This document shows, piece by piece, positions 1-9,093 of a stretch of 9,093 nucleotides of DNA. The stretch comes from a virus. Taxonomy: Duplodnaviria > Heunggongvirae > Uroviricota > Caudoviricetes. The stretch lies in the IMG/VR virus record IMGVR_UViG_2529293223_000005. One strand, written 5' to 3'. Numbering within the stretch: position 1 is the stretch's first letter; each line of letters starts with the position of its first letter. The notes below the pieces were generated by a model. It had not been told where the DNA came from. It did not search any database and saw nothing but the letters and a program-made list of their open reading frames with translations. A program made the translations under genes and the position numbers.

Positions 1-939
1 TTATTTGATTTCAATTTTGTCCCACTCCCTGCCTCTGTCATCACGATACTGTGATGCCATGGTGTCCGACTTGTGCCCGAGAAGATGTTGAGCAAACTTA
101 TCGCTTATCTGCTTCTCATAGAGTCTTGCAGACAAATTGCGCAACTCGTGAAAGGTAGGTGGATCCCCTTCGAAGGAAAGACCTGATGCTTTTCGTGCGC
201 GCATAAAATACCTTGATACTGTGCCGGATGAAAGCGGTTCACGACGAGTAGATGCAATTATGGTTTCTCCGCCAAGAATCTCTTTGCATTTATCAAGTGT
301 TTCCTTCATTGATATCCCGAGAGCATCAACATGCAATGTTGTAGGGATGGCAATTTTTACGCCTGTTTTGCTTTGCTCGACATAAAGATATCCATCTACG
401 ATATCAGACCACTTCATTTCGCATAAATCACCAACTCGTTGCCCGGTAACAACAGCCAGTTCCATTGCAAGTCTGAGCCAACATGGTGATGATTCTGCTG
501 CTTGATAAATTTTCAGGTATTCGTCAGCCGTAAGTCTTGATCTCCTTACCTCTGATTTTGCTGCGCGAGTGGCAGCGACCGGGTTTGTTGTTATATGGCC
601 TTCAGCTATTGCCTCTCGGAATGCATCGCTCAGTGTTGATCTGATTAACTTGGCTGATGCCGCCTTGCCCTCGTCTATGTATCCATTGAGCATTGCCGCA
701 ATTTCTTTTGTGGTGATGTCTTCAAGTGGAGCATCAGGCAGCCCCCTCCTTATTGCTTTAATTTTGCTCATGTAATTTATGAGTGTCTTCTGCTTGATTC
801 CTCTGCTGGCGAGGATTTTTTCGTAGCGATCAAGCCATGAATGTAACGTAACAGAATTATCACTGTTGATTCTCGCTGTCAGAGGCTTGTGTTTGTGTCC
901 TGAAAATAACTCAATGTTGGCCTGTATAGCTTCAGTGAT
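1..939 (-). pseudogene. int: Lambda-type tyrosine integrase (Int), 5'-truncated; codons for about residues 45-356 present, N-terminal ~44 codons missing at the IS911 junction
   Basis: Minus-strand translation ends ...HLLGHKSDTMASQYRDDRGREWDKIEIK, which I recognise as the lambda Int C-terminus including the catalytic Tyr region. The reading frame continues in frame upstream of the tracked Met (ITEAIQANIELFSGHKHKPLTARINSDNSVTLHSWLDRYEKILASRGIKQKTLINY) to position 939, where the IS911 terminal repeat begins. Stop codon at 1-3. Confidence 0.9.
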
Positions 940-2180: not shown

Positions 2181-2255
2181 CCACTTCAGATTGAGGTAGC
2201 CTGAGTTTAACGGACACTCCTTCCTGAAATAGAATGGCATCAGAAGGAGCTAATA

Positions 2256-2558
2256 ATGAGCAGAAAAACCCAACGTTACTCTAAAGAGTTCAAAGCCGAA
2301 GCTGTCAGAACGGTTCTTGAAAATCAACTTTCGATCAGTGAAGGCGCTTCCCGATTATCCCTTCCTGAAGGCACTTTAGGACAATGGGTTACCGCCGCCA
2401 GAAAAGGGCTCGGTACTCCTGGTTCCCGCACGGTGGCTGAACTGGAATCTGAAATTCTGCAACTGCGTAAGGCGTTAAATGAAGCTCGCCTTGAGCGAGA
2501 TATATTAAAAAAAGCAACAGCGTATTTTGCACAGGAGTCGCTGAAAAATACGCGTTAA
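2256..2558 (+). CDS. IS600 OrfA (HTH transposase N-terminal protein)
   Basis: 100-aa ORF MSRKTQRYSKEFKAEAVRTVLENQLSISEGASRLSLPEGTLGQWV...ERDILKKATAYFAQESLKNTR. RBS AGGAG lies 7 nt upstream. A7G slippery run at 2507-2514. Confidence 0.85.
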   Translation: MSRKTQRYSKEFKAEAVRTVLENQLSISEGASRLSLPEGTLGQWVTAARKGLGTPGSRTVAELESEILQLRKALNEARLERDILKKATAYFAQESLKNTR

Positions 2559-2593
2559 TCGAACAATGGCGACAACAATTTCCCATTGAAGCG

Positions 2594-3412
2594 ATGTGTC
2601 AGGTATTTGGTGTATCCAGGAGCGGTTATTACAACCGGGTACAGCATGAACCCTCAGACAGAAAACAAAGTGATGAGCGGCTAAAACTGGAGATTAAGGT
2701 GGCACATATCCGCACTCGCGAAACATATGGAACCCGGCGGCTCCAGACGGAGCTGGCAGAGAATGGCATCATCGTTGGTCGTGACCGACTGGCACGTCTT
2801 CGTAAGGAGCTAAGGCTACGCTGTAAGCAGAAACGCAAGTTCAGAGCGACTACGAACCCGAACCACAATCTGCCAGTTGCGCCAAATCTGCTGAACCAGA
2901 CGTTCGCTCCTACAGCACCAAATCAGGTCTGGGTGGCGGACCTGACGTATGTTGCCACACAGGAGGGATGGTTGTACCTCGCTGGCATCAAAGATGTTTA
3001 TACGTGCGAAATTGTCGGCTACGCCATGGGAGAGCGCATGACAAAAGAGCTGACAGGTAAAGCCCTGTTTATGGCGCTCAGGAGCCAGCGCCCACCTGCC
3101 GGGCTAATCCACCACTCTGATCGAGGTTCACAGTACTGCGCATACGATTACCGGGTCATACAGGAGCAGTTTGGTCTGAAAACATCAATGTCGCGTAAAG
3201 GTAACTGTTACGACAACGCTCCGATGGAAAGCTTCTGGGGAACGCTGAAAAATGAGAGCCTGAGCCACTATCGTTTTAATAACCGGGATGAAGCCATCTC
3301 AGTAATACGGGAATACATTGAGATTTTCTACAATCGTCAGCGTCGTCACTCTCGTCTGGGGAATATCTCCCCGGCAGCCTTCAGGGAAAAATATCATCAG
3401 ATTGCTGCTTAA
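2594..3412 (+). CDS. IS600 OrfB (DDE transposase catalytic domain), expressed as OrfAB by -1 frameshift
   Basis: 272-aa ORF with IS3-family transposase motifs (..HHSDRGSQYCA.., ..RKGNCYDNAPMESFW..), in the -1 frame relative to orfA. Confidence 0.85.
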   Translation: MCQVFGVSRSGYYNRVQHEPSDRKQSDERLKLEIKVAHIRTRETYGTRRLQTELAENGIIVGRDRLARLRKELRLRCKQKRKFRATTNPNHNLPVAPNLLNQTFAPTAPNQVWVADLTYVATQEGWLYLAGIKDVYTCEIVGYAMGERMTKELTGKALFMALRSQRPPAGLIHHSDRGSQYCAYDYRVIQEQFGLKTSMSRKGNCYDNAPMESFWGTLKNESLSHYRFNNRDEAISVIREYIEIFYNRQRRHSRLGNISPAAFREKYHQIAA

Positions 3413-3455
3413 AAAAAGAACAAATGGTAGTGCCCGCTATTGCCAGTACACCTCA

Positions 3456-3516
3456 TTCAGTTAATGCCTCGCAGAAAAAGCGCTCCTGCTGCTTAACAAA
3501 TTCAACGATATCGAAC
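3456..3516 (-). pseudogene. 5' end of a gene (MFDIVEFVKQQERFFCEALTE...) truncated by the IS600 right end
   Basis: ATG at 3514-3516 (minus) opens a frame that runs straight into the IS600 terminal repeat at 3455. It sits immediately downstream of the Gam-like ORF, the position lambda gives to its recombinase. Confidence 0.3.
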
Positions 3517-3535
3517 ATTTTTTTGGTCCTGAAAA

Positions 3536-3817
3536 TCAGAAAGGACAGGGGGAGAATTTTCTCTCCCATTCTTCTTCCGCCCGAGCATAGGCGATCGCTG
3601 AGATATAATCGTTGTACGCCTCTTCAGCTTTTTCGCCAGTGAGTGCCAGTTGGGCTTCTTTGGGTAAAAAAAGGCTGCTCATAAGCAATGGTTTATCGGG
3701 GAACATGCTGATAAGCTCCTGCGCCCGATCATCAATCCATTTATCCTTTTCATCCTGAATATGCTGATTAACCCAGCGACGCTCCTCTATGCGGTCGCAG
3801 GTGAGGTATGCGTTCAT
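3536..3817 (-). CDS. Small acidic protein, candidate Gam-like host-nuclease (RecBCD) inhibitor
   Basis: 93 aa with AGGAG 7 nt upstream of the ATG. The N-terminus MNAYLTCDRIEERRW resembles the start of the short form of lambda Gam (MNAYYIQDRLEAQSW) as I recall it; size and operon position fit. Similarity fades after about 25 residues, so the call is tentative. Confidence 0.45.
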   Translation of the reverse strand: MNAYLTCDRIEERRWVNQHIQDEKDKWIDDRAQELISMFPDKPLLMSSLFLPKEAQLALTGEKAEEAYNDYISAIAYARAEEEWERKFSPCPF

Positions 3818-3837
3818 GGCGGAACTCCTGATTCCGG

Positions 3838-4119
3838 TTAATGCATTAAATTAATTTGTCGGGAAAGCTGACAGACAGGGCAGTTACATTCTTCCTCCTG
3901 CTCTTTAGCGAAGAAATATGCAGCGGCCTGTAATGCGATGTCTTCTGGATGTTCCGCGATAAACATAACATTGCCTTCCGTATCAATAACAGAAATAGCC
4001 TCATCAGGCAGGACGACAAAATAGGCGATGATTTTATCATCCATAAAAACTTCTCCCATTATCGTTTCTGCTGGCGTTATGACGTTTTTTACATTGATAT
4101 TAATTTTTTGATTGAGCAT
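3838..4119 (-). CDS. Hypothetical small protein (93 aa) with C-terminal CxCPxC motif
   Basis: ORF with AGGA 7 nt upstream of the ATG. Tightly packed with flanking genes (11-nt gap to the upstream ORF stop). No family recognised. Confidence 0.55.
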   Translation of the reverse strand: MLNQKININVKNVITPAETIMGEVFMDDKIIAYFVVLPDEAISVIDTEGNVMFIAEHPEDIALQAAAYFFAKEQEEECNCPVCQLSRQINLMH

Positions 4120-4130
4120 GATATTTCCTT

Positions 4131-4343
4131 TCAGGCTGGTGAGATTAACGGTTGGCCTTTATGGTTCAGGTAAACTTCGATTGCATCTGAAATAATGCGG
4201 ATTTTTTCAATCAGTGAATGTGCGTAAAGTGCATTATTAACGTTAGCTGACGCCATGTAATAACGCCCGTTGTAAAGAATTGCTGTACCGGGTTTAACGT
4301 CCTCGCGAGAAACTAATGCGGTTCCGTAGTGAGGTTTGAGCAT
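4131..4343 (-). CDS. Hypothetical small protein (70 aa)
   Basis: ORF with a strong RBS (GGAGGA about 7 nt upstream of the ATG). Follows a structured intergenic hairpin. No family recognised. Confidence 0.5.
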   Translation of the reverse strand: MLKPHYGTALVSREDVKPGTAILYNGRYYMASANVNNALYAHSLIEKIRIISDAIEVYLNHKGQPLISPA

Positions 4344-4382
4344 GACAAATCCTCCGGTTAATTAATCCAGATATTTAATTTA

Positions 4383-4405
4383 ATCCCCGATATGTGATCG
4401 GGGAT
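4383..4405 (-). other. Perfect 9-bp stem / 5-nt loop hairpin (ATCCCCGAT-ATGTG-ATCGGGGAT) in the intergenic region between two small ORFs, flanked by GGTTAATTAA repeats
   Basis: Seen directly. GGTTAATTAA occurs at 4356-4365 and 4408-4417 on either side. No U-tract follows, so it is not a classical terminator; more likely an RNA processing/stability element or a protein-binding site. Confidence 0.4.
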
Positions 4406-4413
4406 GGGGTTAA

Positions 4414-4701
4414 TTAAAGATTAACGTTGAAACCAAAGCGGGAAGACTTTTCCGATGTGCGGGAAATATCCAGCAATTTACGGCGCATTTCTTCCGTCAG
4501 ATGCTTGAAGGCGTTAAATTCGGCGACAGCCGCATCGACGTTATAGCCGTTACGACGTAATTCATTAAATATGCGCATTGCAGGGCTTGGCATGTCGAAT
4601 AAGACGGAGGTATCAAGCTGCAATGTATTTCTATCAACATAGTTCATCGTGGCATAGGGGTGATGCTCTGAAAACCACGATAAAGGGAAATTGATATTCA
4701 T
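4414..4701 (-). CDS. Hypothetical small protein (95 aa), start uncertain
   Basis: ORF between the Rha-like gene and the hairpin. No convincing Shine-Dalgarno before either candidate ATG (4701 or 4647). No family recognised. Confidence 0.4.
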   Translation of the reverse strand: MNINFPLSWFSEHHPYATMNYVDRNTLQLDTSVLFDMPSPAMRIFNELRRNGYNVDAAVAEFNAFKHLTEEMRRKLLDISRTSEKSSRFGFNVNL

Positions 4702-4734
4702 CGCAGGAGAAGACAGGGCCAGTTGTTTCTGTTC

Positions 4735-5052
4735 CTATAGTTGTTTTTCCATGCGATCGAATTCAGCAATGTAGGCTTCCTTGAATGCAGCTGCTTTTTT
4801 GCCGGTGAAGCCCATCACCAGAAAAACGAAGCCGTTTTTGGTGATTTGGTAGGCGTTATAGGTATTGCCTCGGTGTTCGAATTTAACCCGCGAAAAGTTG
4901 CGGGTTAAGAATTGCTCAGAGCATTCGAGGGATTCTATTTTCTGAACAACATGGTGATGCTGCTTGCCAAAAAACTCAGCAATCGAAATAGAAGTAGTGA
5001 CGGCGCGACCATTTTCGATGGTTACGTCAGGGTGAGAAAGGGTAGTAGCCAT
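4735..5052 (-). CDS. Rha-family phage regulatory protein (Phage_pRha-like domain)
   Basis: The C-terminal half (ISIAEFFGKQHHHVVQKIESL...YQITKNGFVFLVMGFTGKKAAAFKEAYIAEFDRMEKQL) fits the Rha-family pattern as I remember it (FGK.H.NVLR.I, L.MGFTG.KA..FKEAYI..F..ME). The likely start is the internal ATG at 5050-5052 (MATTLSHPD...), which has GAGGA 7 nt upstream. The ORF-track start at 5211 has no RBS and would overlap the terminator. Confidence 0.7.
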   Translation of the reverse strand: MATTLSHPDVTIENGRAVTTSISIAEFFGKQHHHVVQKIESLECSEQFLTRNFSRVKFEHRGNTYNAYQITKNGFVFLVMGFTGKKAAAFKEAYIAEFDRMEKQL

Positions 5053-5216
5053 AATGACATCCTCAAGTGATAAGTTAATTAACTCACCACCAGAGGTGCT
5101 AATCTCATGGGTGGTGAGACGCACAGGGTTAGCACTACCGGTCACTCGAGAACCCGGCCAGCCTTGCGGCTGCCCCGCACGCCTCACCATAATTTGAATG
5201 TGGCTGTGCATTACGC

Positions 5217-5241
5217 ATAAAAAAACCGCTTCAGCGCGGTT
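5217..5241 (-). terminator. Intrinsic terminator on the leftward (minus-strand) transcript
   Basis: The minus-strand RNA reads AACCGC-GCUGAA-GCGGUU followed by UUUUUUUAU (plus-strand A-run at 5219-5225). It lies about 165 nt upstream of the Rha-like start and is directly preceded on the same transcript by a second GC-rich hairpin at 5262-5281. Confidence 0.5.
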
Positions 5242-5599
5242 ATGCGCTCGAGTAACTTTCGGGGTGCTAATCCCGGCACCCGTTTTATGAGGTGTTCGCC
5301 AAATATAGCCCCGACATCACACGCAGTCAATATCGTCCTTTCTCGGAAATGCTTTGGCGGTGCCGCCTGCACCCCAAAACATTCCCTGTATTGGTCAGCG
5401 CCAACTTCCTGCCAGTGTTGCCCGTTCTCACGCCGTTCTCGCTCTCGCGCGGGGATACTCTCTCATCGACCGGATCGCACCCGATGATACAGCACGTTTA
5501 CGTGTAGGGGTCTAAACAGGTCATTGACGCTGTAAAGCTCCAGATTGTTAAAGAGCATTTTGCGGCGGGTTAAGTCGCGCCGTACGACTGATTTATGTA

Positions 5600-5614
5600 G
5601 CCCTGTGTCAGGGC
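5600..5614 (-). promoter_or_regulatory. boxB-like RNA hairpin (candidate nutL-type site) on the leftward leader
   Basis: Minus-strand RNA GCCCU-GACAC-AGGGC has the same 5-bp stem as lambda boxB (GCCCU-GAAAA/GAAGA-AGGGC) with a pentaloop. It lies 15-30 nt downstream of the candidate leftward promoter. A boxA-like GCUCUUUAA occurs about 45 nt further downstream (plus 5548-5556). Confidence 0.35.
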
Positions 5615-5637
5615 GCGATGTTTCTGGCTTGGGTAAA

Positions 5638-5666
5638 ATATAATAAGCGCAACTGACCGCAGTCAA
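5638..5666 (-). promoter_or_regulatory. Candidate leftward early promoter (pL-like) with a possible overlapping operator
   Basis: On the minus strand: TTGACT (plus 5661-5666), 17-nt spacer, TTATAT (plus 5638-5643). The adjacent AATAGCAAGGCTAATA shares the 6/7-mers AATAGC and GCTAATA with the cI-cro intergenic region (7695-7734), which would fit a shared CI operator half-site. An AT-rich tract lies upstream. Confidence 0.3.
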
Positions 5667-5895
5667 TAGCAAGGCTAATAATTTAATTTTAATCTATGTG
5701 ATTGATTTTTAGATTAATTTATTTATGTAAAAAATATAAGCGAGGATAATGCAGGTGGTGAGTTATGGAGGATGCGCAAAGAAAAACCGGCGCTGAGGCC
5801 GGTTACTCTGTGTTAGATTTGGTGTGAGGGAACCCCCTGATAACACTAAGAAAAGCAGTGAACAGTCAAAGAGAACCCAGCGGGCTTGGTGGCTT

Positions 5896-5924
5896 TTGAC
5901 AAAAACATCGCCTGTAACTATAAT
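5896..5924 (+). promoter_or_regulatory. Consensus sigma70 promoter upstream of hicA, with overlapping palindrome
   Basis: TTGACA (5896-5901), 17-bp spacer, TATAAT (5919-5924): a perfect match to consensus. The -10 sits inside the palindrome AACTA-TAAT-TAGTT (5916-5929), followed by TTGCAA, a plausible autoregulatory operator. Confidence 0.6.
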
Positions 5925-5953
5925 TAGTTGCAATGTAGCGAAGATGAGATTAT

Positions 5954-6208
5954 GTGGGTATGGGGAAAGCAGATAAGCTACTGGAAAAGTTTTTAAACAG
6001 TAAAAAAACGTTTGAATGGGATGAGTTGGTCGTTTTGTTTTCCTCTCTGGGATATGTCAAAAAGGAAATGCAGGGCTCAAGAGTGCGGTTTTTCAATGCT
6101 GAAATCAACCACACCATATTAATGCATCGCCCACATCCAGAAAGTTATATTAAAGGTGGAACGCTGAAAGCGATTAAACAGAATCTGAAAGAGGCTGGGG
6201 TATTATGA
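5954..6208 (+). CDS. hicA: HicA-family toxin (type II toxin-antitoxin, mRNA interferase-like)
   Basis: 84-aa ORF (GTG start at 5954, or ATG at 5960). The layout ...WDELVVLFSSLGY...GSRVRF...MHRPHP...GTLKAIKQNLKEAGVL fits the HicA/YcfA family pattern. The stop overlaps the next ORF's start (ATGA at 6205-6208), and toxin-first order is the usual HicAB arrangement. Confidence 0.7.
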   Translation: MGMGKADKLLEKFLNSKKTFEWDELVVLFSSLGYVKKEMQGSRVRFFNAEINHTILMHRPHPESYIKGGTLKAIKQNLKEAGVL

Positions 6209-6549
6209 ATCATCTAAAATATAAAGGATATTTAGGTACAGTAGAACCAGATTTTGAAAATAATATCCTGTACGGAAAACTGGCGTTTATTCGAGACCTG
6301 GTAACTTATGAGGCTTCTACATTAGCTGAACTGGAACAGGAGTTTAAGACATCGGTTGAGCTGTATTTACAGTCTTGTGTGGAGGATGGAAAGGAGCCTG
6401 ATACCCCGTTTAAAGGTGTGTTTAACGTCAGACTTGATCCAGAACTGCATCGTCGGGTCGCTGAAATGGCGATGGAAGAAGATTTATCACTGAACGCCTT
6501 TGTTAATAAGGCGCTGGAAAAAGAAGTCAACCATCACACAGGGGCTTAA
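6205..6549 (+). CDS. hicB: HicB-family antitoxin (RNase H-like fold N-domain plus C-terminal ribbon-helix-helix DNA-binding tail)
   Basis: 114 aa. MNHLKYKGYLGTVEPDFENNILYGKLAFIRDLVTYEASTLAELEQEFKTSVELYL...PFKGVFNVRLDPELHRRVAEMAMEEDLSLNAFVNKALEKEV matches the HicB pattern (Y.GY.G.VE.D...G.......E..T..EL...F...V..YL; NVR+.PELH...A..A.....SLN.FV...L). Translationally coupled to hicA. Confidence 0.75.
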   Translation: MNHLKYKGYLGTVEPDFENNILYGKLAFIRDLVTYEASTLAELEQEFKTSVELYLQSCVEDGKEPDTPFKGVFNVRLDPELHRRVAEMAMEEDLSLNAFVNKALEKEVNHHTGA

Positions 6550-6936: not shown

Positions 6937-7656
6937 TCAATCAAAAGTCTCATCATTCCACTGCGACTTTATGACCTTTCCGACAAACTGGCAGTTTTCG
7001 TTACACTCAATCATGTCGAATCGTGGGTTGAGTGGCTCCAGGTACGCTTTACCGCTCTCACGAATGAATCGTTTGAAGGTGAATTCATCGCCATTCATTC
7101 GGGCCACGCAAAAATCGCCATCCTCAATCTCCCGCTCAGGGTCAACGAGTATCAGCATCCCTTCGGGGAAACTGGGTTTACCACCCTGCGGCGCGGTCAT
7201 TGAATGCCCCTTGACCTCCAGCCAGAACGACCTGTCACTGGCTTTTGTGGTGGTGGAGATCCACTTAATCGCATCCTTTGCGGTGTACGAAAAATCATCC
7301 ATTGAGAAAGCTCCAGCCTGTACGCAGGAGAGTAACGGATATTCGTAATATTTCTCGAACAGGTTACGCCTGTTTCCCGGTGTGTGGGTACGAATACTGC
7401 GTAACAAATCACTCAGATCTGGATTAATTTCTTCCGCAGGAACCTGTAATAAAGCCGCAAACTTAAGGGTATTTTCAGTATTTAACGCAATTTTTGCGTT
7501 CAATAACTGACTAACAGCCCCCTGCGTTTTGAAGCCGAGGATATCTGCGGCTTTTTCCTGGCTTAGGGATAGCTGTTTCCGTTTTTCATCCCAGATTTTG
7601 CGCAGTCGTTCAGCGTTCTGGATGTCTTTGTCAGTAATTGTAATTTTCTTCGTCAT
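6937..7656 (-). CDS. cI: Lambda CI-like prophage repressor (N-terminal HTH domain plus C-terminal S24 LexA-like autopeptidase domain)
   Basis: The C-terminal half ([91 protein letters not shown]) is close to lambda CI as I recall it, including the Ser (GHSMTAP) and Lys (FTFKRF) catalytic dyad and an Ala-Gly cleavage site (VQAGAF). The N-terminal HTH domain is diverged. Start taken at ATG 7654-7656 (MTKKITIT...) with GGAGG 7 nt upstream; the ORF-track start at 7695 is an upstream extension. Confidence 0.9.
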
Positions 7657-7707
7657 AGTGCCTCCAATTTTATTAGCAACACAAATACTTATCAAATAGC
7701 TAGCCTG

Positions 7708-7735
7708 TTGACATTTAAATCAGGTAAGCTAATAT
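7708..7735 (+). promoter_or_regulatory. PR-like promoter for the Cro-like gene, within the cI-cro divergent control region
   Basis: TTGACA (7708-7713), 16-bp spacer, TAATAT (7730-7735), then GGAGG (7751-7755) and ATG at 7762. The region carries the palindromes TAGCTA/GCTAGC and ATTTAAAT, and AGCTAGCCTG / CAGGTAAGCT flank the -35. A weak-consensus candidate PRM (TAATAA -10) lies on the minus strand at about 7663-7700. Operators were not resolved. Confidence 0.5.
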
Positions 7736-7761
7736 CGGAAAATTGAAATGGGAGGATCTCT

Positions 7762-8001
7762 ATGACTCTTGACGAGTACTTGAGACAAAGCTCTATCAGA
7801 CAAGCCGATTTTGCGGCGATTGTTGGAGTTTCTCAGGGATTTGTCAGTGGGGGTATTACAGGGAGATACATGCCTCAGGGGCGGAAAGCCATTGAATGGG
7901 CAAAAGCTACAGACTGGAATGTAACTCCCCATGAACTAAACCCGCATGACTACCTAAACATGGAAGATGGTATTCCGCTTCATGTAAGGCAAACAGCCTG
8001 A
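7762..8001 (+). CDS. Cro-like HTH DNA-binding protein (Cro/C1-type), assigned by position and HTH motif
   Basis: 79-aa ORF divergent from cI, with a strong RBS and a helix-turn-helix signature (SIRQADFAAIVGVSQGFVSG). Confidence 0.6.
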   Translation: MTLDEYLRQSSIRQADFAAIVGVSQGFVSGGITGRYMPQGRKAIEWAKATDWNVTPHELNPHDYLNMEDGIPLHVRQTA

Positions 8002-8023: not shown

Positions 8024-8305
8024 GTGAACAGGCAAATCAAAACGGTTATGCCCGATCAGTACTGTGATGCTGATCGGGACTGGATACAGGAGCAATTGTT
8101 ACAGCTAGACCCGACCACCAGGGTAAAAATTGCAGCAGAGTACGCGAGAGTGTACCAGGAAGAGTGGGACAAGGAGCCTGTATCGTTCAGGAAGGGCAAC
8201 AGGGCAAGACGGAGCGCCAACACCCGGTTACGGGTGTATGTCCAGAAGTACGCGAGAGCCAGCCGTGGCTGGATGCTTTCGCCAGTAGCGATACGGAAGG
8301 AATAG
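8024..8305 (+). CDS. Hypothetical basic protein in the cII position (93 aa, GTG start)
   Basis: ORF starts 22 nt after the cro-like stop with GGAGG 5 nt upstream of the GTG. Arg/Lys-rich C-terminus (FRKGNRARRSANTRLRVYVQKYARASRGW). No similarity to lambda CII recognised. The RBS is half of a small inverted repeat (CCTCC-ATC-GGAGG at 8006-8018). Confidence 0.5.
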   Translation: MNRQIKTVMPDQYCDADRDWIQEQLLQLDPTTRVKIAAEYARVYQEEWDKEPVSFRKGNRARRSANTRLRVYVQKYARASRGWMLSPVAIRKE

Positions 8306-8718
8306 ATCTCATCAAGGTTATTATTTTTTTGTGAAATGATTCCGCATGAAATCATTGCGCTTGAAATTTTACTAAGAAGGGGGTAAGGGGGCAGATCTGT
8401 AACATCCGTGCCTGTAAGGGCACTACCAGAGGAAGGCAGCTCCATAGGTTAGGTAGATCACTGTATAGGGTGAGATGGTTTCTGACGAAATTGTTATTAT
8501 GCTAACCATTACGGTGGAAATAGTACCATACTCATCAAACATGTGGTTATCAGCCTGCTCGGAAACAAATTCTACACCGGAAAAGACAAGGTCACGTTTG
8601 ATTATGTGCTGGCTGCCAAATTGCGTGATGCCGGACTGGCGATCGAACGTAATTATCTGGTTGATATGGCAACGGTAAGCGCGGATTCGTCGATATCATG
8701 GTCGTTGCCCCATCTGGT

Positions 8719-9093
<375 letters not shown>

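Follow-up and report, generated by a model that had tools for sequence, protein, structure and literature searches.

In the immI region of the bacteriophages P1 and P7, which is organised as c4-icd-ant, an antirepressor is placed under antisense control, and the specificity alleles of this control co-vary between P1 and P7. The isrK-orf45-anrP module of Gifsy-1 gives rise to a processed RNA of ~80 nucleotides (nt), STnc1160, and a fusion of orf45 to anrP occurs in S. dysenteriae (PMC4825925). Among the early functions of related elements, the KilR protein of Rac is experimentally established as an inhibitor of FtsZ and MreB that blocks FtsZ ring formation and causes filamentation (PMC12482147). 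PMC12315714 counts GamL as one of four anti-RecBCD types and includes phage TL-2011c in its panel; it separates Gam from GamL by sequence type, treats their predicted folds as similar, and describes the mechanism of GamL as unknown. Here we describe a 9,093-nt stretch of viral DNA (IMG/VR record IMGVR_UViG_2529293223_000005; the whole stretch is referred to as the window) in which the minus strand carries an antirepressor pseudogene, ant, preceded by an isrK-like small RNA (sRNA) and a C4-type antisense RNA, and followed by kil, orf93, gamL and the 5′-end of recT. All of these features lie on the minus strand.

The early-left region and its relatives

The region is very probably the immunity-proximal early-left arm of an Oslovirus-like lambdoid prophage (TL-2011c/Ss-VASD, of the Shiga toxin (Stx) phage family) that is decaying in a Shigella boydii-type genome, and that combines an RNA-controlled antirepressor module with a kil-orf93-gamL-recT cassette. 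Positions 3456-5400 are found at 91-94% identity in many genomes of Shiga toxin-producing Escherichia coli (STEC); matches are present in 609 E. coli genomes (full length in 133) and in 105 phage records, mostly of Stx-converting phages, and 33 related loci are found in IMG/VR. Across relatives, the DNA identity of the module ranges from 91 to 100%. The gene order given by PGAP in these relatives is Rha family regulator, cell division inhibitor, hypothetical protein, gamL and RecT family recombinase, and two complete phages of the genus Oslovirus, TL-2011c and Ss-VASD, extend it through recT-exo-ssb, which identifies the genes deleted in the window. Synteny with intact relatives had been proposed for this purpose in an earlier note, made from the sequence of the window alone. 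Five IMG/VR loci (L009 to L013 in our numbering of relatives) are the same as the window from ant to gamL except for nonsense codons in ant, and one of them, L009, shares the IS600 junction at which the window's recT ends. A protein identical to the 158-amino-acid (aa) product of the open reading frame (ORF) at 4735-5211 is on record for Shigella boydii 5216-82, and it is from this match that a Shigella boydii-type source is taken; an exact-match search of species-representative genomes for the recT/IS600 junction gave no hit. As a whole the module is not new: hundreds of STEC and Shigella genomes, and characterised phages as well, carry it in annotated form.

The five minus-strand ORFs listed in the earlier note are present at 4735-5211 (158 aa), 4414-4701 (95 aa), 4131-4343 (70 aa), 3838-4119 and 3536-3817 (93 aa each), but they and the truncated gene beyond them amount to four genes and one 5′ stump rather than five genes and a stump, the 158-aa and 95-aa ORFs being one gene split by an amber codon. 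The close packing that had been remarked upon is borne out: kil and orf93 are 11 nt apart, orf93 and gamL 20 nt, and gamL and recT 17 nt. Shine-Dalgarno (SD) motifs, which had been attributed in strong form to most of the ORFs, precede the ATG of ant at 5052, kil, orf93 and gamL, while the recT stump has a weaker one; in a check of the operon's start codons, the 95-aa ORF and the ATG at 5211 were found to lack such a motif. Downstream of the antirepressor module, kil-orf93-gamL-recT(-exo-ssb) would constitute a tightly packed host-takeover and recombination cassette.

The antirepressor gene

The 158-aa and 95-aa ORFs are one broken antirepressor gene. This gene, ant, is a Rha-domain antirepressor pseudogene at 4414-5052, identified by Pfam, TIGR and PHROG matches and by DNA alignment. 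Intact copies encode 212 aa; in the window the frame is broken at 4735-4737, where a G to A substitution at position 4736 has turned Trp106 into an amber codon (CTA TAG GAA in the window, CTA TGG GAA in aligned relatives). In L009, L012 and L013 the near-identical ant gene is open for all 212 aa, starting at the ATG that corresponds to 5052. The mutation splits the window's gene into a 105-aa N-terminal product and a C-terminal part, the 95-aa ORF at 4414-4701, which is predicted to be untranslated. Residues 1-105 hold a Phage_pRha domain (Pfam PF09669, 94.7 bits, gathering score 29.9) and also match TIGR02681 (90.3 bits, cutoff 45.95), and the 95-aa ORF matches the C-terminal ends of antirepressor PHROG 1760 and 995. 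In all probability, ant is dead in the window through the Trp106 amber mutation. The ant gene of L010 and L011 (about 1567-1945) contains another premature stop, located after residue 125 rather than 105, and the different nonsense codons therefore indicate that ant was inactivated independently in different hosts. The kil, orf93 and gamL genes of L010 and L011 remain intact despite the broken ant.

The predicted start of ant is placed at the conserved, SD-preceded ATG at 5052 because codons 1-53 of the 158-aa ORF overlie the gene for the C4-type RNA, and because the loops of that RNA pair and co-vary with the SD. An SD-preceded ATG is found at a constant distance of 55 nt from the C4 end across relatives, and in L013 the upstream frame and ant are not in register, owing to a 1-nt indel.

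The 70-nt gap between ant and kil holds a 9-bp hairpin (4380-4404, minus strand; core CCCCGAT-loop-ATCGGGG), which is part of a -19 kcal/mol fold and is fully conserved in relatives. Because it is without a U-run, the hairpin is perhaps a processing or attenuation site and not a terminator.

IsrK, the C4-type RNA and the ant leader

Two RNA families cover the DNA upstream of ant. An isrK-like sRNA at 5219-5295 matches Rfam RF01394 over its full length (1-77) with 61.6 bits (gathering score 50), and a C4-type antisense RNA of the P1/P7 immI type at 5107-5194, which corresponds to STnc1160/orf45′ of Gifsy-1, matches RF01695, again over the full length, with 78.6 bits (gathering score 45). The minimum free energy fold of the C4-type RNA is -46.9 kcal/mol. 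Both RNAs are present in 13 of 13 scanned relatives that carry the ant-kil-orf93-gamL cluster, and an Rfam scan found neither in phi80 or KO-TP1. A sigma-70-like promoter, TTGACT-17-TATATT (5302-5330; 10 of 12 matches in a consensus scan), is predicted from its consensus match to end 7 nt before the isrK match start at 5295, and isrK ends in a Rho-independent terminator made up of a stem at 5241-5224 and a U-run. The predicted promoter would drive an isrK-like sRNA whose terminator is leaky, and transcripts that read through it would carry the C4-type RNA.

The ant leader (5059-5102) contains two C4 targets recognised by complementarity. Target a′, UUAGCAC, is at 5102-5096, and target b′, UCACUUGAGGAU, is at 5070-5059 and covers the ant SD; C4 positions 60-66 (7 nt) and 42-53 (12 nt) are complementary to leader positions 5-11 and 37-48, respectively. 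By pairing with the leader and the SD, the two C4 loops would block ant translation. The complementarity is maintained by covariation among the relatives, where the loop a alleles GUGCUAA, GUAGCAA, GUGAGAA and GUCCUAA pair with the targets UUAGCAC, UUGCUAC, UUCUCAC and UUAGGAC, and each of three loop b alleles is accompanied by a compensating target that overlaps the SD. The window has the loop a/loop b pair GUGCUAA/GUUCUCGAGUGA, and TL-2011c has GUAGCAA/CCUUGAUUG.

Compensating C4 alleles are seen in the window (5059-5194), in L001, L003, L015, L018, L020 and L027 and in others, all otherwise similar Stx-type prophages. With at least four alleles of loop a and at least three of loop b, each with its target, they resemble natural antisense specificity switches of the kind that distinguishes P1 from P7. 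One locus, L013, has the appearance of a recombinant, in that the target opposite its loop a allele GUAGCAA contains a 1-nt insertion (TTAGCTAC) and is an imperfect match. The C4 allele set may matter for cross-induction in polylysogens among Stx prophages. A further Rfam match, sRNA-Xcc1 (RF02221, 79.6 bits), is found in TL-2011c and Ss-VASD (L003 and L004) at 4910-4993 on the plus strand, where it separates the Rha-type regulator from a second antirepressor gene; the window does not have this RNA, which in these two phages represents a second structured RNA ahead of an antirepressor.

Kil and GamL

The 70-aa ORF at 4131-4343, which the earlier note left as an uncharacterised protein, likely belongs to the KilR/phi80-type family of Kil proteins and is designated kil, a putative FtsZ inhibitor homologue. 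Its product matches PHROG 294 “Kil” over the full length (E=2.8e-32), is 39% identical to phi80 Kil over 64 aa, and gives E=8e-19 and 67.4 bits with NCBIfam NF008465, “FtsZ inhibitor protein”, the KilR model, whose curated cutoff is 92 bits. The orthologue is named “cell division inhibitor protein” by PGAP, and the ratio of nonsynonymous to synonymous polymorphism (pN/pS) of the gene is 0.12. By homology, Kil would block FtsZ-dependent division. The earlier note rightly saw no resemblance to lambda Kil, but overlooked this other Kil family.

These assignments bear on the proposal that the 95-, 70- and 93-aa ORFs encode three separate, uncharacterised proteins for host takeover or anti-defence in a kil/cIII-like slot. 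All three are open and lie between the regulator and gam, two have good SDs, and none matches Pfam above threshold. In all relatives, however, the 95-aa ORF continues directly from the Rha domain, and in the window a single amber codon divides the two; the ORF is without an SD, and it matches the C-terminal ends of antirepressor families, while the 70-aa ORF matches the Kil and KilR families. The proposal is refuted for these two ORFs, a remnant of the antirepressor and a Kil homologue, and as a statement about all three proteins it is extremely unlikely to hold; the ORF with the CxCPxC motif is the only one that stays unassigned.

The last intact gene, gamL (3536-3817), encodes a phi80 GamL-family protein, a putative inhibitor of the host nuclease RecBCD. 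It matches NCBIfam NF033500, the phi80_GamL equivalog, with 147.9 bits (cutoff 40) through residues 1-88 of the 89-position model, matches PHROG 1050 (E=1.7e-48), and shares 74% identity with phi80 GamL along its whole length. Members of the family occur widely in Enterobacteriaceae. As in phi80, KO-TP1 and TL-2011c, gamL is directly upstream of the annealing-protein gene, with the recT start 17 nt further on. An AlphaFold2 (AF2) model built from 29 sequences is a helical hairpin with a predicted local distance difference test score (pLDDT) of 88.9. The top PDB match of the model is lambda GamS (5mbv_A; TM-score 0.70/0.67 over 91 columns, Foldseek E-value 0.059), followed by 2uuz and 2uv1, and five GamS chains are among the top 11 Foldseek matches. 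The description of this ORF as Gam-like thus stands at the level of the GamL family and of a GamS-like predicted fold, and fails at that of sequence similarity to lambda Gam: the Pfam lambda Gam model PF06064 gives a below-threshold 13.9 bits (gathering score 25; E=0.064) covering residues 1-39, and a sequence search of the PDB with gamL returned no GamS match. Because the alignment to lambda Gam is below threshold, Gam-likeness rests on the family match and the predicted fold. The phi80 record annotates gamL as “host RecBCD/SbcCD enzymes inhibitor”, and this annotation together with PMC12315714 suggests that GamL would inhibit RecBCD (and SbcCD), so that linear phage DNA survives.

The protein with the CxCPxC motif

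With ant and kil assigned, orf93 (3838-4119) is the sole gene of the operon whose protein is without an assigned function. It encodes a small acidic protein (isoelectric point (pI) 4.3, net charge -10) that belongs to PHROG 1635, a family of unknown function, and that may start at M1, M21 or M26; it has no match in Pfam, NCBIfam or PADLOC. The CxCPxC motif, which reads CNCPVC in the window, is C78-x-C80-P-x-C83, and these three cysteines and H93 are invariant in an alignment of copies. A word-indexed search covering 5.8 billion proteins, and an HMMER search run exhaustively over 1.84 billion representatives, found homologues only in E. coli and Shigella, at 87% identity or above. In all 33 IMG/VR loci orf93 lies between kil and gamL, 20 nt upstream of the latter.

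The very narrow distribution, with no homologue outside E. coli and Shigella among the 1.84 billion representatives, would fit a non-functional ORF carried along within a recently spread module, as would the uncertainty of the true start and the lower constraint on the N-terminal 20 codons (pN/pS 0.32). The frame, however, is intact in 38 of 38 copies and under purifying selection, with a pN/pS of 0.23 overall and 0.19 in codons 21-93, where the variable sites are third-position-biased (9/1/12 by codon position). It has an SD and is spaced 11 and 20 nt from its neighbours, the core of its AF2 model has a pLDDT of ~85, and its Cys and His residues are invariant. A non-functional orf93 is accordingly quite unlikely. 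We consider it very unlikely that orf93 encodes a DNA-binding transcriptional regulator of the AbrB family, the name that most members of its cluster bear in NCBI records, as the protein gives no signal of the AbrB/MazE swapped-hairpin domain and is strongly acidic.

Our best guess is that the orf93 product is an acidic protein that inhibits a host factor by binding to it, or else serves GamL as an accessory partner, and that it does not act as a DNA-binding regulator. More specifically, and tentatively, it could be a new, strongly acidic phage inhibitor, possibly with a Cys3-His zinc knuckle at its C-terminus, that tempers the toxicity of GamL or, when Stx-type phages begin an infection, neutralises a nuclease or defence factor of the host. 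The slot between kil and gamL is variable. Its occupants in phi80 are a 278-aa ORF and agt/Mog (322 aa), the latter annotated “anti-toxin for Gam; Mog (modifier of Gam)”, and phi80 gamL is itself annotated “toxic without Mog”; in the Klebsiella phage ST15-VIM1phi2.1 the slot holds a 323-aa gene that is comparable to phi80 agt by length alone; and in KO-TP1 and vB_Kpn_RAH1 it is empty. These annotations, the agt-sized gene in the same slot and the constant position of orf93 ahead of gamL would be consistent with a GamL modulator or antitoxin that is a functional analogue of phi80 Agt/Mog. This narrower role is nevertheless rather unlikely, since orf93 and Agt have no sequence similarity, since KO-TP1 and vB_Kpn_RAH1 possess GamL with an empty slot and GamL therefore needs no partner generally, and since linkage of orf93 to gamL carries no information when all copies, at 94% identity or more, represent one recent module. 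As a broader candidate inhibitor, orf93 offers a cheap target for toxicity, anti-defence or GamL-partner screening in Stx-converting phages.

Residues 14-55 of orf93 have a weak similarity to the “PDG-I-x-V-D-x-GN-V-F” motif that is repeated in NHL/propeller-like proteins. Three long repeat proteins of 1000-1500 aa that the HMMER search returned (P0012, P0013 and P0015) were rejected as homologues, as their E-values of 6e-9 to 2e-5 arise from the summing of several weak repeats; convergence on a beta-hairpin motif is probable.

RecT and IS600

The operon ends in a recT stump, the first 21 codons of a gene for a RecT-family single-strand annealing protein (3456-3518). Its codons are identical to those of relatives' RecT genes up to 3456, where homology stops exactly, and the RecT domain itself is absent from the window, only the 21 N-terminal codons being left. 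The gene start MFDIVEFVKQQERFFCEALTE had been noticed as cut off by IS600, and the gene had been suspected to encode a recombinase; both points are confirmed, the stump running from 3518 to 3456 with the end of the insertion sequence (IS) at 3455, and the identical codons and the annotation of the relatives identifying the recombinase as RecT. By homology, RecT and Exo would perform recombination.

IS600 occupies 1264 bp at 2192-3455 on the plus strand, and the IS end TGAGGTGTACTGG... begins at 3455. Its boundaries were set by BLAST, and an inverted-repeat search for the IS600 ends with a seed length of 9 found none. The element is 99.5% identical to copies on Shigella plasmids annotated as “IS3-like element IS600 family transposase”, and its terminal TGA supplies a stop codon for the recT stump. 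IS600 appears to have cut recT after codon 21, with the loss of everything up to the integrase.

Other features of the window

The window as a whole is a lambdoid prophage remnant riddled with IS elements. It begins with a truncated integrase (1-771, minus strand), followed by a 5′ IS3-family element with ORFs at 976-2180. To the right of the antirepressor module are a HicA/HicB pair (5954-6549, plus strand; PF07927, HicA toxin, and PF05534, HicB antitoxin), a LexA-type cI repressor (6937-7695, minus strand), cro (7762-8001, plus strand) and, in the cII position, a 93-aa ORF without a family match (8024-8305, plus strand); a second copy of the 5′ IS3-family element starts at ~8715 on the plus strand. 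PADLOC gave no match for any of the proteins.

The two direct IS3-family copies (936-1235 and 8715-9014, plus strand), which we take to be IS911, are 99% identical over the 300 nt compared and flank the whole remnant in a composite-transposon-like layout that could delete or mobilise the segment. IS600 adjoins the first of these copies at ~2189-2192. The HicAB pair is situated between the cI repressor and the isrK-C4-ant module, is convergent with cI, and has upstream of it, at 5896-5924, a promoter that matches the consensus perfectly (TTGACA-17-TATAAT); its place is taken by a restriction-modification pair of the BsuBI/PstI type in the closest relatives among E. coli and phages.

Assessment of the assignment

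Several observations weigh against the interpretation of this region as an early-left arm with an antirepressor module under RNA control and a kil-gamL cassette. A comparison of the DNA upstream of isrK (5296-5950) with the cI-cro intergenic region (7660-7790) revealed no operator-like words or palindromes of cI in common, and no N-like gene is visible in the window, so that shared operators do not account for the coupling of the kil-gamL cassette to cI repression. The stretch 5211-5053, upstream of the assigned ant start, may be translated, as is Gifsy-1 orf45 over its C4-like RNA. At the level of the proteins, the KilR score is under the curated cutoff, so that Kil counts as a relative of the family rather than as a proven equivalog, the Foldseek E-value of GamL with GamS is weak, and orf93 has neither a convincing structural neighbour for its predicted fold nor sequence similarity to phi80 Agt or PHI80_41. 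The analysis yields little new biology. Its useful result is a corrected annotation, with one ant pseudogene, a C4-type RNA under the 5′ extension of that gene and an identified Kil, and the residual novelty is confined to orf93.

Comparison with known systems

The same early-left module occurs in many Stx1- and Stx2-converting prophages, and the complete phages TL-2011c (NC_019442) and Ss-VASD (NC_028685) have the window's order of (isrK, C4)-Rha/antirepressor-Kil-73/93-aa hypothetical-GamL-RecT, with kil, orf93 and gamL at 97-99% DNA identity to those of the window. Unlike these phages, the window has an amber codon in ant and a recT cut by IS600, lacks exo, ssb and everything leftward through deletion, and carries HicAB instead of restriction-modification genes beside cI. 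Further differences concern the N-terminal allele of ant and the specificity alleles of C4.

The regulatory module is most like isrK-orf45-anrP of Gifsy-1 and immI of P1 and P7, in which an sRNA with a leaky terminator is likewise followed by a processed C4-type RNA and an antirepressor, with antisense loops complementary to the ribosome-binding region and co-varying specificity alleles. It differs from them in that C4 would target the ant SD directly, with no separate icd/orf45 cistron, and in that the antirepressor begins with a Rha domain and, in the window, is inactivated. As in the S. dysenteriae fusion (PMC4825925), the frame upstream of ant continues in-frame into it.

The early-left genes of phi80 (Lula) follow the order kil-PHI80_41-agt (Mog)-gamL-rec (RecT)-exo. 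Phi80 has N and nutL, is without isrK, C4 and ant, and carries in the place of orf93 two larger genes (278 and 322 aa) that have no sequence similarity to it. The window shares with phi80 the orientation and order of these genes, a kil that is 39% and a gamL that is 74% identical, and a recT after gamL. Relative to lambda the sequence families are others, GamL not being a Pfam Gam protein, Kil being of the KilR/phi80 type, and the annealing protein being RecT and not Bet. The operon layout nonetheless matches the lambda order kil-gam-bet-exo, as the earlier note had recognised, with a division inhibitor, a RecBCD inhibitor whose predicted fold resembles GamS, an annealing protein and an exonuclease.

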